Notes: a model not told the origin generated them from the sequence alone. Positions 9,973 to 51,029 are shown, numbered from the stretch's first letter. The stretch: 61,617 bases of DNA from a virus (IMGVR_UViG_3300037755_000275:1-61617); one strand, 5' to 3'. Made by a program: numbers and translations.

Positions 9973-11118
9973 CTACAGAATCGTCACATTGAGCAATCGG
10001 GCCACGTGAGTAGCCTTGCAGGCAATGGTCCGCCCTGGGCTCCCTGCGAACAACAGGCCCACCAGAAAGTTGTCCTCATCCACGATGGCCGACCCCGAAT
10101 CACCGCCCGCGCTAAACTCCCCTTGGTCCGCCTCAATGACCATCTGGTCGGCAAAGTCCGCGTTACCACGACCAGTTCCGTAGTTGACGGTCACGGCGGC
10201 GTTAAGACCTGTCACCGTGCCCTGTGCGTATTCCGTGGTCCGGCCTGATTTCCTGACCAGTTGCCCAGGTTGTGGGTCCCGTATGCCATTCAACCGGCCA
10301 ATTTTGTAGATGTCCAGATCCACGAACGTCTCATCAACACTGGAAATGGCTGCGTCCACCAAGTTAGGAGACGGTTGCTGGACCACGCGCATCCGGTCCA
10401 TGTCACGCAGAGTCAGCCTATTGCCACAGCCCACCAGCTCTGACAGCTTGTTTGCCGGCCACATCCATGCCTTCCACGCGGCAATGGCCGTGTTCTTTTT
10501 CGGCGGCCTCGGCGGCGGTGTACGGAAATTGATCTCCACCCATTCGCGCAGGTTGCCAAAAAAGTTCTGTATCGGCGTGCCACCGTCAATAGGCCCTGGT
10601 TGGTAGATGAAGTCACCGGGGCTGCCTTCGTTGCTGTTGGCCAGCACATGGTTGTTGGACAGGACATGGGGGACGCCGCCGAGGCCAACGTAACAGCCCA
10701 GGGTGCCTGCCGTGATCTGCTTGTGGCCGATGGAGTAGCCACCAGGGCAGGGTCGGAAACGTTCGGTGAGTTCTTGTGTCTGCCCCACCTGTACCCTGAG
10801 TTTGTTGGCTCGTTCCGTTAGGTCACCTAAGGTGGGTGGGACTAGCACACGCGGCCGGAACTCATCACCCACCTCCTGCACATCCGTCCGTACCCCGTCG
10901 ATGTGCTGCGGGATCTCTTCCAGTCGGCTGAGTTCCGCCCCACGTTTCTTCTTCTTCACATAGACCACGGCGCACCATTCTCCGGTACGCTGGCCATCCT
11001 TCTGCCGGAATCCCTCCGCGACCCCAACGATGTTGTCCACGGCCTCAGTGCCACTGGTGGTGACCAACGGCCGCAGCCTCCTGCACACTTGTTTGACTTT
11101 CTGTTGCATGGAATCCAT
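9973..11118 (-). CDS. Trypsin-like (S1) serine protease with N-terminal pro-domain
   Basis: Catalytic triad motifs SNNHVLA, VDAAI, GGDSGS; also GTLGC and KSGRTT. Start MDSMQQK follows GAAAGGA. Confidence 0.9.
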   Translation of the reverse strand: MDSMQQKVKQVCRRLRPLVTTSGTEAVDNIVGVAEGFRQKDGQRTGEWCAVVYVKKKKRGAELSRLEEIPQHIDGVRTDVQEVGDEFRPRVLVPPTLGDLTERANKLRVQVGQTQELTERFRPCPGGYSIGHKQITAGTLGCYVGLGGVPHVLSNNHVLANSNEGSPGDFIYQPGPIDGGTPIQNFFGNLREWVEINFRTPPPRPPKKNTAIAAWKAWMWPANKLSELVGCGNRLTLRDMDRMRVVQQPSPNLVDAAISSVDETFVDLDIYKIGRLNGIRDPQPGQLVRKSGRTTEYAQGTVTGLNAAVTVNYGTGRGNADFADQMVIEADQGEFSAGGDSGSAIVDEDNFLVGLLFAGSPGRTIACKATHVARLLNVTIL

Positions 11119-11140
11119 TGTTATTGTCCTTTCTACAGTC

Positions 11141-11983
11141 CTAGGTAACCTTACCCCTAGCCCTTGTGCGTGCCCGTATCCTGGCCACGATCTCCCTGGC
11201 CCGCTTCGGTGTAATCCCATCAATCATAGCCCAGCGTTCCCAGTCAGCGTTGAACATATCCTGCCCACTAAGGAATATCTCCTCACAGGCTTTGGACCGT
11301 TCCCAGGCCACCCCTGGGATCTCCTTAGCCACACACCTGATAAAACTGGGCTCCACGTTCCCCGGCGGCCTCACATGAGCCGGAAATCTCAAATGAGACT
11401 TGTGCTGATCCCACTTCTTTGATGCAAAGTGATGCCACAGAATAAATATCTCCATGGCCGTCTCCTGCGGCGTCCTGGTCTTGATAATCTGTACCGGGGT
11501 ATGCAGCCGTAACGTGGTCAAGTGACTGTCCAACGCGGCAAAGTGCATGGCCCGTGTACCCCATACCTGTTCCTTCCACCTGGTCCTACCCCCACGTTGC
11601 CCGGCCGGTAGCTCCAGCCTCAATGACTCCGGGTTCGCCCTGTACCACCCTTCTATGATTAAAAAGCTGAAATCGTAGACATGGAGCATGGCGGGGAGTT
11701 GGCCACCCGCGTACCGGCCCGATTCCATCGAACCAAGCATGTCACGGACCCGTTTGCGTTCAATGCCTACGGAGCACAGGCCGTCTGGGCCGTTGGGGGA
11801 CATGAAACAATAGTCACCGGCCTGGATCTTGCGGCTACGGTCTTCGGGGTGTGGGTACTGGAGCCGTTTGGACGTGATGGCCAGTTTGGTTCCTGAGAGT
11901 TGGACTATTTCACGCAGGAGCATGGTCATCTCCACACGGTTGCGGGCGTTGTCCTCGCGGTCGTCTACGTAGATGGTTGGCAT
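11141..11983 (-). CDS. ERCC4/XPF-type structure-specific nuclease with HhH motifs
   Basis: VDDRE, GDY, IERKRVRD, IIEG; C-terminal IPGV and IDGI HhH motifs. Confidence 0.85.
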   Translation of the reverse strand: MPTIYVDDREDNARNRVEMTMLLREIVQLSGTKLAITSKRLQYPHPEDRSRKIQAGDYCFMSPNGPDGLCSVGIERKRVRDMLGSMESGRYAGGQLPAMLHVYDFSFLIIEGWYRANPESLRLELPAGQRGGRTRWKEQVWGTRAMHFAALDSHLTTLRLHTPVQIIKTRTPQETAMEIFILWHHFASKKWDQHKSHLRFPAHVRPPGNVEPSFIRCVAKEIPGVAWERSKACEEIFLSGQDMFNADWERWAMIDGITPKRAREIVARIRARTRARGKVT

Positions 11984-36022: not shown

Positions 36023-36913
36023 CTAACACGGAACACGGCGTACTCCCTGGAATGAAAACTGGTAAGACTGGTTGCCACCGGCCGCGTTCAACAGGCTGGT
36101 CAATTCAAACTCAATATTGGACCCGAATGGGTACACGTAGGTCGGGACCGGGAACACGGATTGGAAATTCAACGTGTTCTCAAAGTAGTTGACCCAGCGG
36201 GCTGGGTGTGGCTGTGAGGCCAGGGCGCGGTAGCCAGTCGGGTCGAACAGGAGAAACAGGAACGGGTCAAGGCCCAATGACTGGGGTAGACCACCATTGC
36301 CGTTGCCGCCATCTTCCTCAACCACTGGGATGGCATGGACGCAGATTTTCTGCAACTCAAAGTCGTATTCAGTGATTGGGATACTGAATCGGCGCGGGGC
36401 AGCTCCAGCGTCAAAGAAAAAGTTGATGGTCACGTCCAGTTCATACGAGTATGGGTGTTCGTAGTACACGTAATCGGATTGGTAGATACCCCAGTCCCAT
36501 TGGCCTTTGGGAACACGCTTGATACCCTGCCAGCCGATGAATGAGATTTCGTTGCCGTCTTCGTTGACGGCCTTGACCACATTCTGGAGATCGAACCGGA
36601 TCATGGACTGGACAGGGAAGAACTTTTCCGGGACCACTGTCCAGCGGTTGTTGGCGTTGACCAGTAAGGGAGTGCCGCCAGCGCCATGCTCTACACCCAA
36701 CCCCATGGCTTGGGACTCAGATGGGTTATAGTAGAGCCAGCGTGAGGCCACCGTGGCCATGCCGACCACGGAGCGGAGATAGAAGTCTGCATCAGTGATG
36801 TTGATGATGTTGCCGGATGGGCTGGTACCATTGGTCAAGGACCGTCCGTCGAATACCCAGAAGTAGGGAATATCGACCATGCCCTCTGGCGTCTTGTAGT
36901 GTTGTTCACGCAT
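36023..36913 (-). CDS. Tandem two-domain capsid-like protein (duplicated jelly-roll unit)
   Basis: Both halves match the 142-aa neighbour: ITDADFYLR / ITEYDFELQ, and WQGIKRVP / FQGVRRVP. Confidence 0.6.
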   Translation of the reverse strand: MREQHYKTPEGMVDIPYFWVFDGRSLTNGTSPSGNIINITDADFYLRSVVGMATVASRWLYYNPSESQAMGLGVEHGAGGTPLLVNANNRWTVVPEKFFPVQSMIRFDLQNVVKAVNEDGNEISFIGWQGIKRVPKGQWDWGIYQSDYVYYEHPYSYELDVTINFFFDAGAAPRRFSIPITEYDFELQKICVHAIPVVEEDGGNGNGGLPQSLGLDPFLFLLFDPTGYRALASQPHPARWVNYFENTLNFQSVFPVPTYVYPFGSNIEFELTSLLNAAGGNQSYQFSFQGVRRVPC

Positions 36914-37283
36914 CCTGGTTCACCTTGCCATCCCAGAACTTCTTGCTACGTTCCCTGGCGTCCAAGTCAGCACATAGCCCAAAGTCGCCGTGATTCTTGC
37001 CACAGAATAGGCAACTGAGGCCGTCCGGCATCCGGCCTACGTCAGCCCATTGCTCCGTAGTCACCGGACGGTGCAAGTGCTCAGCAAAACAGTCATCAAT
37101 GTCAGTGCCGCGTCCTGGCCGGTTCATGATCTGGTTATTGACTGGACACCAGTATGCCTCAAACTTGGGTCTGGGCATGAGCCGTGTCAGCAGCCCCAGG
37201 CCCAGTAGCATCCATGGGTTCCAGTCACCTGAGTTACTGTTCTTTCGTCGTTTCCTGTTAGCCATCACCTTTCTCCTTTTCAC
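36906..37283 (-). CDS. Basic N-terminus + TM hypothetical protein
   Basis: RKRRKNSN, WMLLGLGLL, CLFC. Confidence 0.5.
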   Translation of the reverse strand: MKRRKVMANRKRRKNSNSGDWNPWMLLGLGLLTRLMPRPKFEAYWCPVNNQIMNRPGRGTDIDDCFAEHLHRPVTTEQWADVGRMPDGLSCLFCGKNHGDFGLCADLDARERSKKFWDGKVNQDA

Positions 37284-37712
37284 CTACGCAATAGCAAATC
37301 GCTTGACCCCCCGGAACAAAATCTGGATCGTGTTCTCAGCAACGGACAAGTCAGCGATGTCAATGCCAATCTTGCCACCGGCTGGAATAATAACTTCCGG
37401 GAACTCCGGGTAGGGACTGGACGGATTGCCCTGGATGTTCGTATTGATGATCCGGCCGCTGGATAGCCAGTAGTCATCGGAGTCGCTGAATCGTACCGAG
37501 AACGCCCCGGTAAACAGGTTGATGACCGTTGCACGCCAGGGGAAGTCAGCATCGTTTTCGACGGACAACTGTGTCTGGAGGACCTGTGACGCGGTCAACG
37601 TCACGTTGAACACGTAATCAAATGACTGGTCCTTGTAACCGCCCGGTACGTCCAGTTGGCCAATGCCGTTGTAGGCCGGCGGCGCATAGGGATTGATTCC
37701 TGCACGGAACAT
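37284..37712 (-). CDS. Putative small single-jelly-roll capsid protein
   Basis: FDYVFNVTL, ENDADF, FSVRFSD, PEVIIPAGGKIGIDIADLS, IQILFRGVKRF. Strong RBS AAGGAGA. Confidence 0.6.
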   Translation of the reverse strand: MFRAGINPYAPPAYNGIGQLDVPGGYKDQSFDYVFNVTLTASQVLQTQLSVENDADFPWRATVINLFTGAFSVRFSDSDDYWLSSGRIINTNIQGNPSSPYPEFPEVIIPAGGKIGIDIADLSVAENTIQILFRGVKRFAIA

Positions 37713-37940: not shown

Positions 37941-38552
37941 CTACTGGACACCACGGGCGTGCAGGCCGTCCAGCAGCAACTGGAGCAATGCCCCGGTGCC
38001 GCCGACCGCGCCCGCCGCCAAAGTCAGGTTGTTCCCGATCAGAGCCGCCGAGAAATTCATCTTGTTCTCAATGACAATCGGGATGGCCAGCTTGTGCATG
38101 GCCTCACGCGACGGGTTACCGTTGTTGTAGGTGGCCTCGTCGGTGATCGAGCTGAAACCGTGGATGCCGCCCCCGGCATTGTAGAACCAAGGCGGTCCCT
38201 GGTTATACGGTTTGTCACCCAGGACAAACGAGATGGCAAAACCGTTGACGATGCCCAACAGGTCCGAGCGGAGAATGTTTTCCGCATACCGGAACCGCAT
38301 TCCCAGGATAGAGAATGCCTGAGGGGCGGCCAACTCGTTAGCCGTCCTCATGTTGGTTTGCGCCAAAGTCTTACCGGACGCCGGACCCACAGACGTGTAG
38401 AACGCGCTGTTGGTCGTGGTGATCGTGGCGGCGGCGTTGTAGGTCACGGTGTCCCACAGAGGCTCATGCTGCACGTCCATGCGATTCTGGACATACGTTT
38501 CGCTCTGAAAGGACTCAAAAATCATCTGTTGCTGCGGAGTCATCGGATTCAT
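37941..38552 (-). CDS. Candidate major capsid protein (vertical single jelly roll)
   Basis: EPLWDT...GKTLAQTNM...PQAFSILGMRF...IPIVI..NFSAAL..LLLDG. Own RBS, flanked by structured intergenic regions, directly after the Arg-rich core gene. Confidence 0.6.
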   Translation of the reverse strand: MNPMTPQQQMIFESFQSETYVQNRMDVQHEPLWDTVTYNAAATITTTNSAFYTSVGPASGKTLAQTNMRTANELAAPQAFSILGMRFRYAENILRSDLLGIVNGFAISFVLGDKPYNQGPPWFYNAGGGIHGFSSITDEATYNNGNPSREAMHKLAIPIVIENKMNFSAALIGNNLTLAAGAVGGTGALLQLLLDGLHARGVQ

Positions 38553-38682: not shown

Positions 38683-39492
38683 CTAGAAAGCCCTCCCAAA
38701 GGCTCTGGACACACCGTTCATGGTGACCGGCGCACCGGCTCCATAGGTGCCATTGGCGGCCACGGGAATCGGACGCCCGTAAGCCGGATAGTTCGCCTGG
38801 TTCGGGTTCAACGGGTTCTGAGGCACCGGGTAGGCACCGGGAACCAGATCACCGAGACCACGCATACCCTGAAGGGCAAGCTGCGAACCAATGGCCGGGA
38901 TGAAGGCATTGAGCAGAACCGAACCGGCCTGCATCAAGCCGCCAAACCGGACAGCAGCCCCAAACTGACGATTCCACAGACCACCCAGCCAACCGGCCGC
39001 GAATGCCGCCCCAATGGATGACAAAGAGGCCATGATTGGCGTGGACTTGAGATTGGCCGGCAGTGCGTTGGAAATGAACTTGGTGGCGGTCACACCGACC
39101 AGACCACCGAAGATTTCCTGCACCTGCCCAGCCATTGCCCCACCGAGCTGGTTACGGCGGCGGCGGTTGCTCCTGCGGACCACGATACGGGTAGCGTTGC
39201 GTCGTCGGCGGCGCGGGGCAGCCGAGATACGCCGTCGCGTGCGTCGTCGGGGTCGCGCCGTGTAGGAGGCATTCCGGCGGCGCGTCCGACGTGCGGTAGT
39301 GCGCTTTCTGCGTTTCTTCACTTTCGCTCTCCTTGGATTGAGTGCCCCGAGCGTAATGACCCGGAGCGGGTTTTTCGACCGGCTACGGTGGCGGGCACGT
39401 GTGGCCCGTTTCCGTCTCGTGGCCGAAGACTTTGACTTTCGACGGCGGCTCACCGGGTTGGCAATCCGCCTGACTCGAATGATGCGTTGCAT
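38683..39492 (-). CDS. Arg-rich DNA-condensing core protein with C-terminal membrane domain
   Basis: About 115-aa protamine-like N-terminus with NP/RRRN motifs; hydrophobic helices; MRGLGD. Confidence 0.7.
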   Translation of the reverse strand: MQRIIRVRRIANPVSRRRKSKSSATRRKRATRARHRSRSKNPLRVITLGALNPRRAKVKKRRKRTTARRTRRRNASYTARPRRRTRRRISAAPRRRRRNATRIVVRRSNRRRRNQLGGAMAGQVQEIFGGLVGVTATKFISNALPANLKSTPIMASLSSIGAAFAAGWLGGLWNRQFGAAVRFGGLMQAGSVLLNAFIPAIGSQLALQGMRGLGDLVPGAYPVPQNPLNPNQANYPAYGRPIPVAANGTYGAGAPVTMNGVSRAFGRAF

Positions 39493-39588
39493 GTTTGTCT
39501 GTTACTCCTTTCAGTCAGGCTCCATTACCGGGAGCCACGGAAAGAAATTCGATTACGTGACTTGTGCCACGTGTCACTTGTTCCGTAC

Positions 39589-39915
39589 CTAGCGCCCGAT
39601 GGAATGTGGACGCTGTACGTGGACCCGCACCTGCGGCGTGGCGCTCTGGGTCGCTGACGTGGTGGTCCGGCCCAGCACAACATTGGTGGTGTTGATACTG
39701 GTAAGGAACCAACCCGACGTGTTACCCACAGCGGTCAGATCCGTCAGGGTCACGATCAGCGGGGCCAGACCGGCAATACCGGCTCCGGCGGCAGCCTTGA
39801 TCGCCCCAAGTCCATGGGCAATCGTGATGGCCACGTTGGAAGCCGCATTGGCAATCACATCAGTACGGAAAAGGTCCGTCCCCTGAAACGTGTTGGAAGT
39901 ACTGGCAACAGCCAT
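39589..39915 (-). CDS. Small beta-rich virion protein
   Basis: ITIAHGLG...P..V; AGGAGA RBS. Confidence 0.55.
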   Translation of the reverse strand: MAVASTSNTFQGTDLFRTDVIANAASNVAITIAHGLGAIKAAAGAGIAGLAPLIVTLTDLTAVGNTSGWFLTSINTTNVVLGRTTTSATQSATPQVRVHVQRPHSIGR

Positions 39916-40039
39916 TGTGTTTCTCCTTTCTAAAGTGTCAATGTGGGGCCGGACGAGCCGCTTATGGCCTTAGCCGTCCCCGGCTCATTCAAGTGTGAAA
40001 GTCTAGTCTCCAATCCATCACCGTAAATGCCTCCTACAG

Positions 40040-40081
40040 CCGTGGTCCGTAGTCCGCAGTTCATAGTCCACGGTCCATGTC
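40040..40081. repeat. Heptamer array of CYRYRG-like units (others near 1614-1692, 9932-9979, 11999-12041, 34658-34690, 38628-38660)
   Basis: ccgtggt ccgtagt ccgcagt tcatagt ccacggt ccatgtc. Confidence 0.75.
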
Positions 40082-40082
40082 G

Positions 40083-42302
40083 TCAGTTCACAATCCCCTC
40101 AGGACGTACTTCGTACTGGCCGCCGGACACGGATAACAGGTGGTTGATCGTGTCATAGTTCAATACGGGCTTTTGTCCTGTCACTTCCCCCAGCTTGTGG
40201 AAGTAGTCAATCAGCTCAAACTTGTCAAAACCCTTCTCTGTCCTGTAGGTCACCACCTGGAGTACGCCCAGGGCCATGTGATCGCGTACCCAGTCCCGGC
40301 CTGACATGCCCAGTTGACTTAGGTCCACGTACTGTGAGCCGCCCTCAAAGTACAGTTGGCGTCCATCAGGGGATGAACACAGCATGATGACGTTGCGGCC
40401 GGATTTGGGGAACTGGAGCCGCACCTTTTCATCCGTCATCAGGTGTACGTCCAGTTCAGCCAGTTCGCCAAGTTCGGCCAGGTTGTCACGCGATGAGATC
40501 ACGGTACGGACTTCGGTGGTTTGCTTAGGACCACGGCCATGGAACTGTTGATAGAGCTGGTCGGCGTCCTGCATGGTGGCAGGGTTAGGATTACGTCGCC
40601 TTCCCCTACCACGCCTTGGACTTTCATCCACAAACCAGTTGCTAAGCAGTCCGTCCAGGTCCTTGTATGCTGCCGTGCTGCTGATCTCTGGGTGTGCCTT
40701 GGAGAACTCTTTTGACGCCCACAGCATTTGCTCATACCGCCCACTTTTCCCAGTCCCACTCAGTGGCACACGAGCCAAATGGTAGAGATTCACCAATTCA
40801 CCAGCGTCCTTAGGGTCGATGAATCGGGGTACATAACGGTCAGGGTTGTTTCCACCCCGTGTCACTTCTCCAGGGTTCCCATTCCCATTCCGTTTGAATT
40901 TCCTTAACGCCTTCCTCGTCGCCGTAATCCCAATACCCCTAGCCCGGCCATTGACCTTCCTCGGCACGCCACTCAGCCTCAAATCCCCCTCATAGGCCAT
41001 CAGCCACCTATCAGCCTTCTGGTAAGTGTCAAACACCTTGATAGGCTTCAGGCTTTCCCCATATACCCCACTCTCATCAAACGGCATCACAGCCCACTTG
41101 CCAGGACTGCGGAACTTGATGACCTTCTCGGCTCTGGCGTTCCAGTTGTTCCACTTGATGGTGCCGGCGCTGGGGTCCACGTCACCAACACCAATATCCT
41201 TGCCGTGCGTGCGGCTGATGGTGAAGCGGAGATATTGAGGGTCCTTCTCCACCTTAGACTTGATTGCCTTCAACAATTCCGCCGTGGTGTCACCGTGGAT
41301 GTAGCCGTAGCCGCCTGAGGTATAGCGATCAGGCCACTGGGCAATCAGTTTCTTCCCGGTGATGGAGTTACGGCGTCGGCGCTTGATCCTACTCCTGTCC
41401 TTATGGGTCCACGCATCATAGAATCCGCGCATAAACTCAGTGCGTTTCTTTCCATATGATCGTGTAGGCTCCCCGGCCCGTCCCCACATAAACTCAAACT
41501 GCTGACCCATCGTAATGTCAGGGTCTATAGCGATCCCGGTATCAGCACCACGGCGCTCCTGTTCCCCATGGGAGTAGCCAGCGTCATACCAGTTGACTGC
41601 TGTGGGGTTACGGCGTCCGGGCTCAGGCCACAGCCGGTTGAACTCACGGGCGGCCAAGTCGTAATCATCCTCATTCCACTTGGTACGGCCTGCTTCCCTC
41701 ATCTGACGATTGGCAGCATCCGTAGCCGCCGCACGGGCCAATTGCTGAGTCATGGCAGGCCGTGGATTCAACTCTTTACCAGTCGCCCTCCAGAAATGTG
41801 CCGCCTCCCTCAAATATTCTGCCTCCCTCACCTGTTGGCTGTCCGTGACCCCGCTCTCCTGGTCATAGGACCGGCGCTTCAGCATTTCCGCTGCCCACTC
41901 AATACCCTTTTGCCGATTGCCAAACATCTTGGTCCCTTCAGCAATAAGGTGTGAATGCTTCTGCACTATGTGCTTGGTACGTCCCCGGTAATGTGGCTCA
42001 TCCATCAGGTCAGTAATAGATGGGTTCCGCCGTGTGCCTTCCACATGCTCCTGATGTCCTGGAGACTCCCAAACCGTTTGTCTTCTGTTGGGATCAAATA
42101 CCTCAACCGGATGCCCAGTCCGCTTGTACTCCTTCTTTCCAGCAGCAACCGCCTTAGCCTTGCTGTCAAATGTCATCCGCACTGGTAACTGGTTAGGGTC
42201 ATCCAAGTCATAGCGCGTGACCTGATAGGAATAACCACGATGCTTGCGGGTCGTGGGTTCCCCGTAAGCATTCCGCCTCCGTCTCTGTACCCTACGCGCC
42301 AT
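40083..42302 (-). CDS. RRNP-punctuated modular basic protein (739 aa)
   Basis: Modules separated by RRRRNA, RRNP, LNP, RRNP, RRRRNS, NNP, RRRNPNP. C-terminal domain YQQFHG...YFHKLGE..P...GGQY..GIVN. Confidence 0.75.
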   Translation of the reverse strand: MARRVQRRRRNAYGEPTTRKHRGYSYQVTRYDLDDPNQLPVRMTFDSKAKAVAAGKKEYKRTGHPVEVFDPNRRQTVWESPGHQEHVEGTRRNPSITDLMDEPHYRGRTKHIVQKHSHLIAEGTKMFGNRQKGIEWAAEMLKRRSYDQESGVTDSQQVREAEYLREAAHFWRATGKELNPRPAMTQQLARAAATDAANRQMREAGRTKWNEDDYDLAAREFNRLWPEPGRRNPTAVNWYDAGYSHGEQERRGADTGIAIDPDITMGQQFEFMWGRAGEPTRSYGKKRTEFMRGFYDAWTHKDRSRIKRRRRNSITGKKLIAQWPDRYTSGGYGYIHGDTTAELLKAIKSKVEKDPQYLRFTISRTHGKDIGVGDVDPSAGTIKWNNWNARAEKVIKFRSPGKWAVMPFDESGVYGESLKPIKVFDTYQKADRWLMAYEGDLRLSGVPRKVNGRARGIGITATRKALRKFKRNGNGNPGEVTRGGNNPDRYVPRFIDPKDAGELVNLYHLARVPLSGTGKSGRYEQMLWASKEFSKAHPEISSTAAYKDLDGLLSNWFVDESPRRGRGRRRNPNPATMQDADQLYQQFHGRGPKQTTEVRTVISSRDNLAELGELAELDVHLMTDEKVRLQFPKSGRNVIMLCSSPDGRQLYFEGGSQYVDLSQLGMSGRDWVRDHMALGVLQVVTYRTEKGFDKFELIDYFHKLGEVTGQKPVLNYDTINHLLSVSGGQYEVRPEGIVN

Positions 42303-42342: not shown

Positions 42343-45008
42343 CTACCGTTTCCACAGCCCCAGGACTATGGCCCCCAACGCCCCACCAATGACCAAGGTC
42401 TGTAGGTCAAGGCCCTGGACAAATTCACCCACGCCGGCACCCAGGACAGGGGCACCGTTCACGTAGCCCGTAGCCGTGTCACTGGCCGCAGCACCGTTGG
42501 TCCCTTGGCCGCTCGTATCCCCGCTGCCACCATCCCCGCCACAGCAACAGCCGGACATGCCAGCCCGCAGAGCCCGGATCAACGGGTTACTGGGCACTGC
42601 CAACCTGGACGGCATCAGGTCCCCGAACTTGGGCACGTAGCCGATGTCCCCGGCGAAACCATATGGCATCAGCGCACGGGACTTGTTATCCACGATGGGA
42701 TTCTGTGGCACGACAAAGAAGCCTGGGATGAGATCCCCGAATCCTGGTGCCGGATGGTGGTTGATCCACATAGTTTGTTTCTCCCTTACCTTCGTCCCTT
42801 ACCTTTTGGCCAAGACCACTACGCCGAAAATCGCCGCCCCGATCAGAAACATGGTCGTATAGTTGATTACTGGTTTCGTACCTGGCTCTGGCGGCTTGCC
42901 AGTGACCAGAGCCCATGTGCTATAGGCAGAACACATTTCCGGGTTGGCTCTGCAATAAGCCGCTACTGACTTGTCACCAGCCTCAATCGCCCGCTGACGC
43001 ATCTCAGGAGTCATCGCTGGCCCAAAATCAGCCGCCTGACACTTGGATGGGTCAATTGGCAAACACTCGGCTACCATGGCACCTGCTTGGCCAAGGTAGT
43101 CACACCAGGCCGGTGATGGAGCACAGGGGTTCGTCTCCCTCTCACTGGGCCACAGCGGGATGTACTGATACCACGGTGTCTGACCCATGCCACGGTTGGC
43201 TGTCCACCTGTGCATGGCGTCATGGTCCAATCGCTCGAATTTTGAAATCAATGGCATTCGTTACTTTTTCGTCAAAGTGCTCAAGGCCAGTAGGCCGACC
43301 AAAGATCCCGCAATCAGCAACCAGTTGTCATTCACCCAGGCCAGGGCCGTGTCCGGCGGTCGTGGCGCTAATGGTGGCTGCCCACCTGTCACCGTAGGCG
43401 GCGGTGAAAACAGAGACGGCAGCATTCCCCACCACTGGTCCTCAGCGCGGGTGACAGGTGTACCGGCTTGGATCAACGGAACGTTGGCCATCCAGTCCAC
43501 GTTGCCCATCGCAGTACGTGGATCAAATACACGCCCCATGCCGTCCATGTCCATCACCGGGATCTGGTCGCAGTCTTTGGCACCCGGTGGCACTTGCAGA
43601 CTGGGCACGATTCCTGGCCTGTTGATCGGGATGCGTGACTCCACAATACGGACCACTTCCTCCGGCTCAAAGTAGTGAGCCAACAGCGTGTAGTTCGGAT
43701 TGTTTTTCACATGCGGAGGTATTTGCATCGTCTGTTACCACTTGACCTGTAGTGCCTCTATTTGCTCTACTTCCTGTTTGCATTCTTCATCTGTCATCCC
43801 AGGGTCAGCTTGAACGGCCCAGCCATCGTACAGACCATCTTTGGTGAAGTAATGGACGATGGGCTGTTTACCGGGGGCGCGGCACACGATGCTATCAAGT
43901 TCCTCCCCGTCTTCCACGTAGGAACCGTCCGGTATGTACAGCACACGGTTCAGGTCCTTGTTTCCACCGTCACCAATAACCTTGAGGTTCATCACTTGCC
44001 CTTTCGCAACAGCACCCAGGCCAGCACGCCGCCGATGGCAAATGGTGCCAGCCCTTCTGTCATGGATATCCCAGGACAGTCCTCCAGGTACACATCCGGG
44101 GATGGTGCCCAGTCCCCAAAAGTCCGCGTACCGATGTCGGCGGCCAACGGCCCGTAGTCGGCCGGTCCCGGAGGAGGCACCAGTTGTGCCGGGCATCTTC
44201 GCCAGTCAAATATCACCATTTAGTTGCCCCCTTCGTAGAGACTTGCCTGTTGGCCCCACCAGTTGACTCCGGCCATGCCGTTGCCATTGACCCGGCCAAG
44301 TCCCATGGGACCCTTGACCATGGCCCACCACTGGTCAATCGTCAGTGGTGTGTTCTGCACGTCGTCTACGCCCAGTGGCTTTCTTCCCAATTTCGTGGCC
44401 TGCCACAGTGACTCCGGCACAGCAAACGGGTCCACGGCGGGCAGATTCGCTGGCAGATAAAAGTTCCATTGCCAAAAGTGCAGCTCCCCACCATTGGCAG
44501 TGGCCTCACCCTTCGCTGCCTGCCACACCTGGTCCTTGACGTTGCCGCCGCCGGACTGTCCGCCGCCCACGGTATTGCTGCCAACCTGTTGCCCAGCATC
44601 ATTTTGTTGGCCCGGCGTCTGGCCAGTGGTATTGGTAATCGGGACCTGTCCACCATTCGATATGGGGGCAACGTCGCTGGCCAGTCCCACGTAATCTGGG
44701 ATCATGCCCTCGCCTACTGCCCACCTGTAACCGAAGTAGATGGCCGCACCGATGGCCGCGTACTTGACCACCCCGCCCATGTCGCCCATGCCGCTTGTTT
44801 TGGCCATTCACTTCCCTTTCTTTTTGCTGCCTGTTGCCACAAACAGGGCTGCCCCTGCCAACAAAGCCAACAATGCACCTGCACCAATAGCCCCACCACT
44901 ACAGGAACCACAGGCCGTGGCAACCGATTGCACAGCAGCCATGCTGGGAACTCCCAGCATTCCGTAGCGCAATCCCTGACGTACTATGTTTGGCAACTGG
45001 GCTGTCAT
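42343..45008 (-). CDS. Cluster of seven small proteins, mostly membrane-anchored (42343-42771, 42799-43257, 43261-43728, 43735-43992, 43992-44219, 44220-44807, 44808-45008)
   Basis: Tightly coupled ORFs. Five end in a TM helix plus K/R tail, one has an N-terminal TM, and 43735-43992 is soluble and acidic. Confidence 0.7.
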
Positions 45009-46178: not shown

Positions 46179-47381
46179 TCACATCTGCAATGCCACGAAA
46201 GCCAGCACTCCGGCAATCAGCAGTGGGGTGAGATTGCCCATGTCACCAGTGCCCTGGGTCCGGTACACCGTTTGACCTGTCACAGGGTCCACTTCGGCTA
46301 CCAGGCCGGGATCAGGGACCACATCCGGGTCATTGGCGATTGGGTCCCTGTAGCGTGCAAACCAGTCCCACTGGCCACCGGGTTTGCGGTCGTCAATGCA
46401 CCATTTACCGGGCGTGCCCATGTCAGGGATGCCGCAGGACTTGACCACGTAGTCCCAGCCGGCGTCAAAGTTTTGTAACGCCTGGTATTGGGATGAGACC
46501 GTGTGGGGGCCGGACATGTAACCAGCCAGGTTTTGCTGCATCATGGGCTCTACGCTGTCCACAATTTCAGTGGTGGCGCGTTTCTGGCCCGGCTTCTTGC
46601 GGCTGAATAGGGCCATGAGTCCAATGGTCACGCCTGCTACGGCCAGACCAATGGGACCACCGGCGGCGGCAAGCCATACGGAGCTGGATGCCAGGGAGCT
46701 ACCTGATGCAATGGCGGCGGATGTTACTGCCAGACCTGTGCCCACAGCAGCCTGGGTTGTGGAACCACCAGACGGTAGACGGAATCCGCCCTGGGTTGTC
46801 TGTCCCTGTGTGAAGTACTCGGAAAGATCCTGACCAAGCCCACCTAGTCCGTTCTGTGTCTGGTGGAACGGCTTGGGGTCAACGTAGATGAACTTGTCAT
46901 AGCCGACCACGCCACGGTGTTCCATGGGACGGGATAGGGCCTTGGCCGCTTTGTCAATCCGTGCCTGACGTTCCAGCTCCTCAAGCTGCGGGTCCGTGTT
47001 CATGGCCCGGAGCGCCCATTCCGTACCCATGCCGATGATGACGCCTTGGGTGATGGGATCAAGGAAGCCTAGGGAACCAAGGGAGCCATCACTGCGGCGG
47101 TAGACGCCACGGGCTGCGGCCGGCGCTGGTTGGCCCACGTGACTGAGTAGCCAAGCCGTGTCCTGCACACGGGAATTGATACCAGAGAATGCGCCAGGGT
47201 GACCATGGCGGCGGCGCTCACGGACACGGCGGGATGGCGTGGCGTCAGCACTGGCGGGCTGGGCTACGTGGGACAGCAGCCAGGCTGTGTCCTGCACACG
47301 GGAGTTGATGCCACGCACACCACGGCCGGGGGGACGTGAGACGTGTCCACCAAGAGCCGATCTGTAGGAGGTTTGTTGCAT
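46179..47381 (-). CDS. Membrane protein with an internal repeat and Gly/Ala-rich hydrophobic segment (entry protein candidate)
   Basis: GINSRVQDTAWLLSHVxQPA twice; AAAGGPIGLAVAGVTIGL; C-terminal TM. Confidence 0.65.
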   Translation of the reverse strand: MQQTSYRSALGGHVSRPPGRGVRGINSRVQDTAWLLSHVAQPASADATPSRRVRERRRHGHPGAFSGINSRVQDTAWLLSHVGQPAPAAARGVYRRSDGSLGSLGFLDPITQGVIIGMGTEWALRAMNTDPQLEELERQARIDKAAKALSRPMEHRGVVGYDKFIYVDPKPFHQTQNGLGGLGQDLSEYFTQGQTTQGGFRLPSGGSTTQAAVGTGLAVTSAAIASGSSLASSSVWLAAAGGPIGLAVAGVTIGLMALFSRKKPGQKRATTEIVDSVEPMMQQNLAGYMSGPHTVSSQYQALQNFDAGWDYVVKSCGIPDMGTPGKWCIDDRKPGGQWDWFARYRDPIANDPDVVPDPGLVAEVDPVTGQTVYRTQGTGDMGNLTPLLIAGVLAFVALQM

Positions 47382-49684
47382 TACCTGTAAGCCGCCCGCC
47401 AACCATTTTTGATGCTCTTTTCCAACCGCGCCTTATGGGCACTGGCGCTGGAGTATCCACGTTTCTTGAGTCGTGATACAGCCTTCCTTGCAGAGGCTAC
47501 GGTGTTGCCAACCCACGCGATGTTGTTGAACCCCGTGGTTGCATAAACTACGTAGCCTTCCCGGTAATCCAGTACTCCGGGATTAGACCGTCGCCTCCCC
47601 TTCCGTGCCATCCCCGCCATTCTCTTAGCCCCATACTTGCGTCTGCCGATTGATGTACACAGACCACCAGGACTACGCACCCCACGGCGCTTCATGGTGG
47701 ATACACATTTGCGGAACCTGGAACCGGTGCCCAGCTTGCCTTTACCAAATGACGGGTTGGCTTTATACCCACGTTCAATTTGCTTGTATCCCACAAAGCG
47801 ATTACCATCCCACCGATGGATAGAGGCTTCCCCTTGTTTTTGTGCTACTGCTTCCGCCTTACTCAAGGCAGCACGTAGCGTGGCATGGTAGGAATGCTCT
47901 CCGCGCCCACGCCCGTTGAACACCATGTACTTTTTTATTGGATTGGATGACCGTGACGGGTTACTCACCCTGCGAAACTGTTTCCGCCACCCACGCTTGA
48001 ACCCGGCCGGTAGCTTGGCCTCAAACCCCTTGACTGCCTTGTGACCAGCAGCCAACAGCTTTTTCATGGCCTTCTGGGCTTCAGTGGCAAGACGACCAAC
48101 CCAGGCCACGGAGTTGCCGACCTGGACCACGTAGCCTTTGCGTGGGTTGTTGACACGGGTATGGGGGTTGGTCCGCCGACGCAGCACGGACGCGGCATTG
48201 CGGCGTCGTGAATTTGGCCTGGCAACCTTGGACCCATATTTGTATGCACTGCCACCAATCTCAGCCAACCCATCTGCTGCACCTACCCGCCAGTTGGCCA
48301 AGTAACTCCGTTGCAGCTCAGTACGCATACTTGGAATCAGATTCCTGTAGGAACCAAACTCCCTTTTAATGGCCGTCTCAATTTGTGACTGGGATGGTGC
48401 CTGTCTCTTGCCACCACGTTTGCCTACCTTGAACCCAGCACGATAGGCTACGGTGCTGAGGGCTTCATAGGAGGGATTGCGTAACCTCCCACCCTTGGCC
48501 ACACTCCTGGTCCCAATCCCTGCATCCCGTCCCCGGCCACGTGGATTCTTGGCACCAGTTGGGTTTATCCACGACTTGGCTTGTCTGAGCGTGTCTGTCT
48601 GCCACACCAACTTTGACTGGTAATACACGTCATAGGAGGTTCGGACACGGCCATCGCCACTACGTCCCCTCTTTTTGACAATCACAAATCCCATGTAGGG
48701 GATACGAGTTGGATTCATCACCCGTGCCCCTACCGACCGTCCAATACGGCCGGCCACGGCCCTGGCGCTGGGTCCGGCTACAGTGCGGCGTGGACGTACA
48801 CCCGGATTGCGTTTCCTGGGACTTGACCCAGTACCGATTACTACCCGCACCCTGTCATCACCGGAACGCCCTTCTTGCCTGTTGATGATGTTGGCCGTTT
48901 CTTCTGCTTCCTTCCTGGACGTGTACCGATACATTGAGCCATGCTTCCGATAACCAATCGGCTCAGGTCCGGGAGTACGCATCTTGCCTTCAGCGACCCA
49001 GTAGTAGGTTGGCCCCTTGCCGGGATTCCTACCCCGAATAATCCTGGGCCTGTCCTTCTTCGGCGGCGTCGGCGGCTTTTTGGTCCTGGGCGGAATCCAC
49101 GCCCGTCTTGCAGCAAGTACCCCGCCGGCTTTTGGCAACCCATACCCGTACCCTGGACCCGTGGCCGTGGCCGTACCGACCGTGAATATCGGGTTCTGTC
49201 TCCCACGCCCTGTAACCCGACTTGCCTTCTTGAACTGTTCCCGCCACCCGACAACCGGCACCTTGCCGCTGACCGGGTTAGGCCCAACCTTTTTAATCAT
49301 GCAAATGCCGAACCCGGCGCGTTTGAGTTTGGTCTTGGCCTTGGTCGTGTCAGGTTTGGAGGCAGAGACGTAGGCCAGGGTGCCTTTGCAGTAGACACCC
49401 CATTTGTGACCGGCGCGGGACTTGGATCGTGGGTTGGTGCGTCGTGTCATGGTGCGCCTACCTCGTGGGTTTCTTTTCTTGGGCAACTTACCACCAAGTT
49501 CGATCACGGTTTGTTCAATGGCTGACTTCCACGCCGGGTGGATCGTAGTACGCAATTGTCCAATCGTTGGTGACCCCGGATAGCTTGCTGAAATTCTGAT
49601 TGAGTCGTTGTACCCACGGCGCTCTGCCAACTTTATTAGTTGGTTCTGAATCTTCCGAAGGTATGTGCGTTCGGCGTCCGTCAC
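47381..49684 (-). CDS. NP-punctuated, highly basic polyprotein-like protein (767 aa)
   Basis: GTG start overlaps the upstream TGA at 49681-49684. 16 Asn-Pro dipeptides, mostly after K/R runs. Confidence 0.75.
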   Translation of the reverse strand: MTDAERTYLRKIQNQLIKLAERRGYNDSIRISASYPGSPTIGQLRTTIHPAWKSAIEQTVIELGGKLPKKRNPRGRRTMTRRTNPRSKSRAGHKWGVYCKGTLAYVSASKPDTTKAKTKLKRAGFGICMIKKVGPNPVSGKVPVVGWREQFKKASRVTGRGRQNPIFTVGTATATGPGYGYGLPKAGGVLAARRAWIPPRTKKPPTPPKKDRPRIIRGRNPGKGPTYYWVAEGKMRTPGPEPIGYRKHGSMYRYTSRKEAEETANIINRQEGRSGDDRVRVVIGTGSSPRKRNPGVRPRRTVAGPSARAVAGRIGRSVGARVMNPTRIPYMGFVIVKKRGRSGDGRVRTSYDVYYQSKLVWQTDTLRQAKSWINPTGAKNPRGRGRDAGIGTRSVAKGGRLRNPSYEALSTVAYRAGFKVGKRGGKRQAPSQSQIETAIKREFGSYRNLIPSMRTELQRSYLANWRVGAADGLAEIGGSAYKYGSKVARPNSRRRNAASVLRRRTNPHTRVNNPRKGYVVQVGNSVAWVGRLATEAQKAMKKLLAAGHKAVKGFEAKLPAGFKRGWRKQFRRVSNPSRSSNPIKKYMVFNGRGRGEHSYHATLRAALSKAEAVAQKQGEASIHRWDGNRFVGYKQIERGYKANPSFGKGKLGTGSRFRKCVSTMKRRGVRSPGGLCTSIGRRKYGAKRMAGMARKGRRRSNPGVLDYREGYVVYATTGFNNIAWVGNTVASARKAVSRLKKRGYSSASAHKARLEKSIKNGWRAAYR

Positions 49685-50331
49685 CGTTTCCCCCGATAGG
49701 TCCCACCACCGACGCCACCACTGAACGCAATCGCCAGCAGGATCATCCCCGCTGCCAGTACCGCAAACTGTCCACCTGCGCTGGAAGGCAACATGCTTTT
49801 CAACTGTTCCGGCAGATACTCCTCCAGTCCGGCCATGGACACGGGAGCACCACCGGGAGCACTGGGCCTCGATACTTGCGCCAGGTACATGGACTACTTC
49901 CTCCGGGACATGGCCATGAATACCAGCACGCCAACCCCGACCAGGGCCACGGTCCCAACTGAGAACCCGGTGGCAAAACCTTCCGGCGTGGCTACCCCAT
50001 ACTGCTGCGACGACAATGAACCCGGAATGATGGGCAACGACGGCTGCGTACCTTCCGGCTGCTGGTAGTAGATGGTCCCCTGCGGCGTTGTCTGCACCAC
50101 GGTCCCAGGTCCATACTTGAACCGCGTGCTGACTGTCTCCACGCCAGTCTTGATGAGATCCTGCCACCAGGTCTGGCCCATGCCACGGGATGCCAGGTAG
50201 CCACGTAGGCCGCCGGATGGTTCATGTCCGCCGGGGACACTCATCGTGCCCTCTAGCGACTGTGCCGAGAATGCACGCCGGATGCGCTGAGCCTGATTGC
50301 CTACCGTGTAGCGGCCAACGACAGCGGCCAT
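49681..50331 (-). CDS. Two C-terminally anchored membrane proteins (49681-49890 and 49894-50331)
   Basis: FAVLAAGMILLAIAF; RGMGQ...VALVGVGVLVFMAMSRRK. Confidence 0.7.
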
Positions 50332-50333
50332 GG

Positions 50334-51029
50334 TCAGATCCCCCCTCTTGCCCACAGGTACATCAGCAGCACGACGCCGACTACGGTCCCAACTCCCATG
50401 CCACCAATTGGCCACTCCTGTATCCGGGTATAGGGCGCGTGTTCCCACCCTGGATGTGGGCCATGACTCGTGTCCACCGCGATCCGTTCCCCCTCATTGG
50501 TGTAGGCGGCAACGTAGACGTGGGAGAACTTACCCACCTCAACCCTGTCCGCCGCGATGGTCACGAACGCGGTACGGATACCCAGCGCCGTCAACAGTGC
50601 TGCCGTATACATGGAGAAGTCGTCGCAGTCGCCCAACCGGCTGCATTGGCGGCCATCACCGCACATGGCGGCCATTTGTTTTGGCCGAACCAGCACTTCA
50701 ATGATGGGGACACTGCCGGGAGTTTCCATCCACGAGGACAGCCGCTCGTCGCCCACGAATGACAGCCGGCGCTTCACGTAGCGGAATACGCGGTCCACGA
50801 TCTCACGCTGTGGGATGTGGCCGTAGTCGATAGTACCTACAGCCTCGTGGGCATCCCTGCGGATCTCAAGTGACTGGGCATCCTCCACCACGTACTGCCG
50901 CATTAAATCTATGGTGGCGGCAACCTGGCCGTCCGCGTCATCCGGGACGTAGCTCTCCTGCGTAGGTAGGACTCGACCGAAGGCTGGATGGTAGAGGGCC
51001 TGCATCCTGCGGGCTAGGCCCCCTCCCAT
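50334..51029 (-). CDS. Transglutaminase-like cysteine protease with C-terminal TM
   Basis: Catalytic Cys-His-Asp motifs GDCDDFS, FSHVY, AVDTS. First gene of the virion operon. Confidence 0.85.
   Translation of the reverse strand: MGGGLARRMQALYHPAFGRVLPTQESYVPDDADGQVAATIDLMRQYVVEDAQSLEIRRDAHEAVGTIDYGHIPQREIVDRVFRYVKRRLSFVGDERLSSWMETPGSVPIIEVLVRPKQMAAMCGDGRQCSRLGDCDDFSMYTAALLTALGIRTAFVTIAADRVEVGKFSHVYVAAYTNEGERIAVDTSHGPHPGWEHAPYTRIQEWPIGGMGVGTVVGVVLLMYLWARGGI

Follow-up and report, generated by a model that had tools for sequence, protein, structure and literature searches.

The whole virus record IMGVR_UViG_3300037755_000275:1-61617 (61,617 bp, bounded by direct terminal repeats and referred to below as the window) encodes, in a minus-strand block at about 27-51 kb (27000-51100), three proteins, p739, p269 and p928, that are punctuated by a short recurrent mark, most often an asparagine followed by a proline (N-P). 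We interpret these proteins as precursor polyproteins in which the N-P pairs would be cleavage sites that release cargo mini-domains and arginine-rich peptides, a reading in which we place roughly even confidence. The mark is enriched in these three proteins only, it is conserved throughout large families of their relatives, where it coincides with the borders of shuffled modules, and a conserved enzyme with a transglutaminase-like fold, predicted to use a catalytic cysteine, is encoded alongside. The features on which the argument depends are the following (lengths in amino acids, aa).

40083-42302, minus strand: p739, 739 aa, reading frame with its motifs
40083-40586 (stop codon included), minus strand: C-terminal domain of p739, about 165 aa (residues 573-739), placed after an invariant N-P and ending in ...EGIVN
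41607-41765, minus strand: module of p739, residues 180-232, between ELN-P and GRRN-P, similar to stand-alone proteins of 45-64 aa
38683-39492, minus strand: p269, 269 aa, reading frame with its motifs
39151-39492, minus strand: basic head of p269, residues 1-114, with 44 Arg and 8 Lys and no Asp or Glu
38683-39150, minus strand: Gly/Ala-rich hydrophobic C-terminal domain of p269, with the motif GDLVPG..PVPQNPLNP, kept in 77 relatives and in alignment A4
47381-50167, minus strand: p928, a third N-P-punctuated polyprotein candidate with 16 N-P pairs (1.78 expected) and small basic modules, without the C-terminal hallmark domain
50334-51029, minus strand: transglutaminase-like protein, 231 aa, with predicted catalytic Cys, His and Asp and a C-terminal membrane anchor; candidate processing protease

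The N-P mark, its families and the modules between marks

An earlier note on this DNA had described p739 and p269 and listed short motifs in them; both reading frames are present as described, and every motif listed was found. The Arg-rich p739 opens with a leader ending in RRRRN-A (residues 7-12), which is followed by about six modules bounded by N-P or N-S and by the conserved C-terminal domain; the marks are TRRN-P (N93), ELN-P (N179), GRRN-P (N232), RRRRN-S (N312), GNGN-P (N476), GGNN-P (N486) and RRRN-PN-P (N571, N573). In p269, the marks are IAN-P (N12), SKN-P (N41), ALN-P (N52), RRRN-A (N74), RRRRRN-A (N100) and RRRRN-Q (N114), and they divide the head into a 12-aa leader ending in IAN-P, a 29-aa basic stretch ending in KN-P, the 11-aa PLRVITLGALN-P and Arg runs that end in RRRN-A, RRRRRN-A and RRRRN-Q. 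The database gene calls begin later than the longest open reading frames (ORFs), at M43 for p739 (P0001, 697 aa) and at V58 for p269 (P0013, 212 aa). For both proteins, the longer form is favoured because the upstream residues are conserved in relatives; residues 1-42 of p739 are kept in the relative P0003. For p928, the true start is probably near 49,680, because its first ~160 codons are shared with two small ORFs (49894-50448 and 49681-49890, minus strand), each with a hydrophobic segment at its C-terminus.

Across the 97 ORFs of a crude gene call, on which all genome-wide dipeptide counts rest, 70 N-P pairs were found versus 45.1 expected, 28 of them in p928 (16), p739 (7 versus 1.46 expected, a count reached in 0 of 2000 shuffles) and p269 (5 versus 1.07). 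The other 94 ORFs contain 42 pairs versus ~40.8 expected, so the enrichment against the rest of the proteome, for which the earlier note had proposed a test, is limited to these three proteins, which also hold 9 of the 11 RRN tripeptides. In each of 12 proteins tested, composition-keeping shuffles reached the observed N-P count in 0-2 cases out of 2000. The 28 sites of the three proteins use all 8 AAY-CCN codon pairs; the signal therefore acts at the level of the protein, and a recombination or boundary motif in the DNA was rejected. An N-P pair within the first 30 residues is present in 6 of the 20 structural-module ORFs versus 3 of the 77 other ORFs (Fisher p 0.002).

The same punctuation recurs in the relatives of p739. 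A word-indexed search yielded 11 relatives of 412-1071 aa that match only the last ~165 residues or scattered modules, and a profile built on the C-terminal domain (alignment A1) matched 2,438 representatives of 50%-identity protein clusters at E<=1e-3, of which 710 also pass E<=1e-30. Among the best 150 profile matches (proteins of 184-1493 aa), the domain is always C-terminal. N1 and P2, directly before the domain, are invariant in A1, and the pair is kept even in the shortest members, in which the whole extension is a basic leader of 7-40 aa; N-G takes its place in 2 of the 33 members shorter than 300 aa. Of 158 members, 134 end in Asn, 20 in Asp and 4 in Gly. An AlphaFold2 (AF2) model of the domain (predicted local distance difference test, pLDDT, 81.4; mostly beta) suggests a beta-barrel without a recognised fold: Foldseek returned nothing at E<=1e-3 from the PDB and BFVD, the top match of a wide VIA-align search, a PilZ barrel at Z 4.9, does not rise above the noise, and the ESM Atlas provided no usable match.

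The N-terminal extensions were counted in 155 of the 158 members, three with extensions shorter than 30 aa being left out. They contain 888 N-P pairs versus 121.8 expected, so that 888 of their 2,139 asparagines precede a proline, and the C-terminal domains contain 17 versus 25.3 expected. Among dipeptides of the extensions, N-P is the sole strong enrichment (7.3-fold, the next being 2.0-fold), and Asp-Pro stands at 0.88-fold (164 versus 185 expected). The marks have a median spacing of 72 residues, and their columns do not vary among relatives that share 30-80% identity. The basic context is looser: Arg or Lys occurs in the three residues before the pair at 594 of 883 sites and is missing there at 289, and a [RK][RK]N tripeptide continues with Pro in 127 of 183 cases, otherwise with Ser, Ala, Thr or Gly. 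Thus, the RRN grammar that the earlier note had proposed persists as a mark, but its invariant part is N-P, or Asn with a small residue after it, rather than RRN.

The p269 family behaves likewise. In 22 aligned relatives, the head columns N12, N41, P42, N52, P53 and N114 are invariant, and the Arg runs between them differ in length and sequence. Heads of at least 40 aa (52 of the 76 examined) hold 288 N-P pairs versus 28.3 expected, and 47 of these 52 carry a leader that ends in N-P or N-S within 16 residues. Of the fusion of a protamine-like head with a membrane domain that had been suggested for p269, the head stands on its composition, and the membrane domain is plausible, the C-terminal part being moderately hydrophobic (Kyte-Doolittle 19-residue peak 1.44). 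Within that part, the stretch at 38683-38850 (minus strand) has the motif GDL(V/I)PG..(V)PQNP(L/I) in common with the N-terminus of a 142-aa membrane protein (42343-42771, minus strand); here the N-P may serve a purpose different from that of the linker marks. A short hydrophobic peptide between two marks, which in the window reads PLRVITLGALN, was seen by eye to recur in p739-family members of other loci. As to p928, one of its modules is shared, at 48% identity, with the p739-family member in locus L001.

The marks coincide with the borders of modules. Among 1,808 blocks of BLAST similarity between extensions, 58% start within 5 aa of an N-P, versus 16% under random placement, and 56% end within 5 aa of one, versus 15%. 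Hydrophobicity within 4 residues of an N-P is 0.16-0.22, versus ~0.27-0.32 elsewhere. Splitting the extensions of 148 proteins at N-P produced 742 segments with a length of 30 aa or more, which were grouped into 431 module families, 329 of them singletons; the module architectures of the 148 proteins are all different, and 22 of the 451 co-occurring pairs of families are found in both orders. For example, p739 has its 'NWY...' module before its 'SITGKK...' module, and this order is reversed in the close relatives P0002 and P0003; read directly in these three proteins, the SITGKK module always begins after N-S. The comparison of homologues that had been suggested earlier therefore reveals a constant C-terminal domain, N-terminal modules that vary and change places, and persistent N-P punctuation, rather than a fixed order of modules joined by unconserved linkers.

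Hardly any of this cargo resembles known domains. Pfam matched 1 of the 60 longest family members (DUF7227/GP88) and, above its cut-off, none of the 11 first relatives of p739. One module of p739, residues 180-232 (MTQQ...NRLWP), had been described as a helix bundle that looks like an inserted stand-alone gene, and five free homologues of 45-64 aa (66-74% identity, E 1e-13 to 5e-11) agree with this description; to judge by them, at least this module, a singleton among those of the family, works as a free small protein. By eye, an HNH-nuclease-like pattern of Cys, His and Asn was noticed in N-terminal modules of the p739-family genes in loci L007, L009 and L011, and a small two-Cys module (..F.RCV......CAA..RR..) recurs in the same genes and near the end of p928.

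Candidate enzyme, proposed mechanism and alternatives

The ORF at 50334-51029 is the most likely candidate for the processing enzyme. Its residues D134, C135, H170 and D186 are invariant in 17 sequences, its C-terminus forms a hydrophobic anchor, and it has a weak match to Pfam Transglut_core (E 0.0036, below the cut-off). Its AF2 model (pLDDT 85.8) matches six PDB chains in Foldseek at E<=1e-3, which include the putative cysteine proteases 3ISR and 3KD4, LapG (4U65_E) and a transglutaminase (TGase; 4XZ7), with E values of 1.8e-4 to 7e-4, and more weakly PNGase, Rad4 and the pseudomurein isopeptidase PeiP (E 0.03). The model thus suggests a papain/transglutaminase-like core fold, with Cys, His and Asp as the predicted catalytic residues. 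This gene is the most constant neighbour of the p739 family, being found in 19 of 23 related loci and, when whole records were searched, in 5 of 5 related genomes. [quoted passage not shown] A complex prediction for its catalytic part with the p269 head scored 0.00; it had no control and counts neither way.

The only other recognisable protease of the window is a trypsin-like protein of 416 aa (9973-11223, minus strand; phrog_20754, E 2e-52) within the replication block. It was rejected as the shared processing enzyme, being found in 0 of 5 related genomes in a search with a positive control, and it is a lineage-specific acquisition. A conserved neighbour of 407 aa was also considered as a protease and set aside: it looks like a membrane protein, with conserved Cys residues and no protease signature.

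In the proposed mechanism, autonomous modules, with a median of ~72 aa between marks, would be joined by short polar linkers, the core of which is Asn followed by Pro or, at a minority of sites, by Ala, Ser or Gly. Arg or Lys frequently stands before this core, and the linkers would be proteolytic sites cut after Asn. Cuts in p739 would free the cargo mini-domains from the putative C-terminal beta-barrel, which would be the common handle for incorporation, and cuts in p269 would yield a short leader, several very Arg-rich peptides with a possible role in DNA condensation, a hydrophobic peptide of 11 residues and a C-terminal protein associated with the membrane. The membrane-anchored transglutaminase-like protein, encoded a few genes upstream, would most likely make the cuts.

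On this reading, the three proteins belong to the particle-forming gene module. The earlier note had proposed a shared DNA-binding or processing signal through which variable cargo is loaded into the nucleoprotein core. We infer that the motif directs processing, either in place of DNA binding or in addition to it, and that the products may reside in the nucleoprotein core. A processing mark fits the observations best because the N-P pair is conserved at module borders, leaders are present on proteins of the block and a conserved cysteine enzyme is encoded alongside. Precedents exist for both elements: the bond between Asn269 and Pro270 of FlhB is known to be scissile (PMC3708937), and virion-delivered multidomain phage proteins are described as undergoing processing (PMC5512222).

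Several points weigh against this interpretation. Most proteases disfavour Pro at P1'. The stand-alone homologues of module 180-232 lack a terminal Asn. Members devoid of cargo keep the basic leader and its N-P, which suggests that the motif may act as a signal by itself. Simple release of cargo accounts neither for these retained leaders nor for the conserved C-terminal Asn of the p739 family, and both hint at recognition of the Asn-ending element as such. Enzymes of the transglutaminase fold also include cell-wall isopeptidases and cross-linkers, and the candidate may instead serve entry or act on the host wall. Finally, SSIP-1, the sole cultured relative, to which the link rests on one significant protein match (gp34), has no N-P enrichment in any of the 26 proteins tested.

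The first alternative, which we regard as somewhat unlikely, is that the polyproteins stay uncut, like beads on a string, the basic N-P linkers being flexible, turn-forming tethers that bind DNA along the packaged genome. The Arg or Lys found within three residues upstream of two-thirds of the sites (594/883) and the protamine-like head of p269 are what such tethers would require. Asp-Pro forms the same kind of turn as Asn-Pro and is not enriched, and the mark is not that of canonical AT-hooks, the cores of which are rare (RGRP 4 versus RNP 181) and were rejected as an explanation. Moreover, N and P are invariant and the basic context is not; because 289 of 883 sites have no Arg or Lys upstream, a cleavage or recognition site fits better than a purely electrostatic DNA hook. 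The existence of one module as a free protein elsewhere also speaks against permanent tethering. Asn-Pro is the context in which Asn is most resistant to deamidation (PMC7582646), a property that would suit a long-lived linker.

An improbable alternative is that the linkers cleave themselves, the Asn side chain attacking its own peptide bond by asparagine-lyase chemistry with no need for a protease, perhaps upon a trigger inside the particle. Autocleavage occurs in YscU, in reovirus mu1 (Asn42-Pro43) and in nodaviruses (Asn-Ala), in addition to FlhB. These known cases need a folded catalytic context, the flanks of the present sites are unconserved flexible linkers, and uncatalysed cleavage of Asn-Pro is slow. 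The pairs N-P, N-A, N-S and N-G do match those of known autocleaving proteins, among them FlhB with its Asn-Pro (PMC3708937), and the lack of conservation of the trypsin-like protease would be expected if none were needed. On the other side stand the presence of the conserved Cys-His-Asp enzyme and the rarity of the FlhB/YscU-type autocleavage motif NPTH, which occurs at 2 of 832 N-P sites and was rejected on this count.

We are equally doubtful that the basic N-P element is a sorting tag, bound by a component of the particle to load modules or whole proteins, with or without later removal. The leader and N-P of cargo-less members, the N-P leaders at the N-termini of several structural proteins and the conserved C-terminus ...GIVN would all be natural in such a system; however, one tag per protein would be enough, yet every module is flanked, and no receptor for such a tag was recognised. 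A compositional accident of low-complexity sequence rich in Arg, Asn and Pro deserves next to no credence: the proteins are indeed Arg-rich, but the shuffles that keep composition almost never reach the observed counts, and the N-P columns do not drift between relatives.

Within the cleavage interpretation, a bolder version, which we think unlikely, can be formulated: a large group of uncultivated, membrane-containing bacterial viruses would have independently evolved a core maturation like that of adenoviruses, by an Asn-specific cut. The cut would be made by the transglutaminase-fold enzyme or by the Asn-Pro bond itself, Arg peptides similar to mu would condense the genome, hundreds of interchangeable kinds of mini-proteins would be delivered to the host, and a gene could be captured simply by being flanked with N-P. 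As no packaging ATPase or terminase was recognised (see below), peptide condensation may even replace motor-driven packaging.

Gene block, related loci and the cultured relative SSIP-1

A replication set is gathered in one part of the window, with a family A DNA polymerase, a uracil-DNA glycosylase (UDG) fusion, ThyX, an ERCC4 nuclease, a helicase, a D5-type primase, Gp157, a topoisomerase and ParB. The minus-strand block that carries p739 and p269 is nearly blank to Pfam and PHROGs. The scan against these two databases covered the 47 larger of the 97 ORFs, the other 50 being all shorter than 210 aa; within this scope, it revealed nothing recognisable as a terminase, a portal, an HK97 capsid protein or a Walker-A packaging ATPase, and p739, p269 (no Pfam match at E<=0.01) and most of the structural module matched nothing. 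Small membrane proteins and beta-rich proteins resembling capsid components flank p739 and p269, and two neighbours carry an early N-P:

36906-37283, minus strand: 125-aa protein with a 23-aa basic leader ending in ...GDWN-P; possible further substrate
37941-38552, minus strand: candidate capsid protein, 203 aa, starting with MN-P; synteny in 6 loci

The candidate capsid protein has weak ESM Atlas leads to the PM2 P2 and PRD1 P3 families (score 0.77), and its top SSIP-1 match, gp46, is not significant (E 0.04). Reading by eye, we noticed a unit ..D.DADF.LR.. ending in ..G.K(R/V).. that occurs twice in a 296-aa protein (36023-36913, minus strand), twice in proteins of ~315 aa of distant relatives (loci L010, L011, L018, L019 and L023) and once in a 142-aa protein (37284-37712, minus strand). 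By this pattern, the proteins look like a two-barrel capsid protein and a one-barrel paralogue such as a vertex protein. The 142-aa protein was first considered as half of a split double-barrel capsid protein, an idea dropped on the grounds that the 296-aa and ~315-aa proteins carry the unit twice; it is more likely a single-unit paralogue. A tblastn search with the 296-aa protein and p739 against the 50,697 phage records gave no match. A 60-nt direct repeat is present in two copies (78% identical, 129 nt apart, at 47125-47313) in the interval that separates the end of p928 from the conserved portion of the 407-aa ORF, the long TTG-started N-terminus of which is probably non-coding.

A search for related loci with the p739 sequence alone returned nothing, and the profile A1 returned 23 IMG/VR loci on contigs of 5.6-86 kb; a further 9 loci lie in metagenome bins. 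The closest relatives in bins belong to Terriglobia/Acidobacteriales of the phylum Acidobacteriota (L025; L024 and L028 being Terriglobia). In the Acidobacteriales bin, the locus L025 is located inside a 497-kb scaffold that also carries p269-like and transglutaminase-like genes; this setting points to an integrated element and to a host group.

SSIP-1 is described as a ~100-nm, T=49 particle with an internal membrane; its genome is circular and measures 44 kb, and its capsid is built of two types of single-barrel protein (PMC6356626, PMC4958249, PMC6260650). Besides gp34, its capsid-protein and gp43 matches to the block are collinear but weak (E 0.004 to 0.1). The 2,319-aa virion protein gp43 occupies the matching gene position, ends in ...RGILN and has ...RENP ~165 aa before its end; it was not accepted as a homologue of the p739 C-terminal domain, the match being not significant (hhalign E 0.098; hidden Markov model E 0.055 among 26 proteins). 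In gp44, N-P marks flank a hydrophobic peptide; the sequence NPAELVVHENP of this protein resembles NPLRVITLGALNP of p269, and the two proteins are unrelated by profile; gp41 has isolated ...RENP and ...QNP marks at its start and near its end. We treat these marks in gp41, gp43 and gp44 as leads only. The uncultivated source phage is probably a membrane-containing, tailless, distant relative of SSIP-1.

Implications and comparison with known systems

No published description of the N-P grammar or of the p739 family was found in the literature searched, supplements being outside the search. The virus group concerned is very abundant (2,438 protein clusters at 50% identity) yet undescribed. If the N-P marks are cleavage sites, particle maturation would follow a proteolytic grammar that is new, perhaps along with a protease specificity that is also new. 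More than 400 unknown families of mini-proteins would then be loaded and exchanged by phages, apparently like cassettes, and they would be candidates for functions in host take-over or anti-defence; the arrangement would also offer a model from nature for delivering several cargoes at once and for linkers that can be cut.

The closest functional parallel may be found in adenoviruses, the core precursors of which, pVII and pX/Mu, are processed by the virion cysteine protease adenain at the consensus (M/I/L)XGX-G or (M/I/L)XGG-X. As there, Arg-rich precursors are encoded with capsid genes and would be cut at short repeated sites, and small DNA-condensing peptides would be produced by a virus-encoded cysteine enzyme; the p269 head has such an Arg-rich composition (52 Arg and Lys in 114 residues), and DNA condensation is predicted for it. 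Unlike the adenovirus precursors, those described here carry shuffled cargo modules and have N-P as their site, p739 and p269 match no core protein family in Pfam (E<=0.01), and the candidate enzyme has the transglutaminase fold rather than that of adenain. Adenain sites were rejected as processing points, with 1 match in p739, 2 in p269, 0 in p928 and none at a module border. The loose analogy with pVII and mu drawn in the earlier note would thus hold for function, but not for sequence, cleavage sites or protease fold.

A second parallel is provided by the polyvalent proteins of phages and conjugative elements, which have highly variable multidomain architectures and are encoded beside virion genes (Iyer et al. 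2017, PMC5512222). They are believed to accompany the DNA, and proteolytic processing is described for some of them (PMC5512222). The p739 family is likewise multi-modular, with 431 module families and no two of 148 architectures alike; by contrast, its modules are tiny and nearly all unknown, with no known conflict-related domain families (1 of 60 members with any Pfam match), and it has a uniform N-P mark, a common orphan C-terminal domain and no internal peptidase domain.

The internal proteins of T4 have capsid-targeting leaders and prohead-protease sites, and the inner-body proteins of phiKZ are comparable. There too, proteins destined for loading into the particle and for injection carry a short leader at the N-terminus, with a protease site at its end; these phages, however, are tailed, and their site consensus and protease families are different. 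We know of no multi-module shuffling of the p739 kind in systems of this type. Translational skipping of the 2A type has the core N-P-G-P, and a 2A-like process was rejected here, since NPGP occurs at 9 of 832 N-P sites. FlhB and YscU share the scissile dipeptide (PMC3708937) and differ in their NPTH motif and in the conserved fold around it, which has no counterpart at the present sites. By analogy, the system described here would work most like a combination of adenovirus core maturation with the polyvalent and internal proteins of phages, while being a member of none of these groups.

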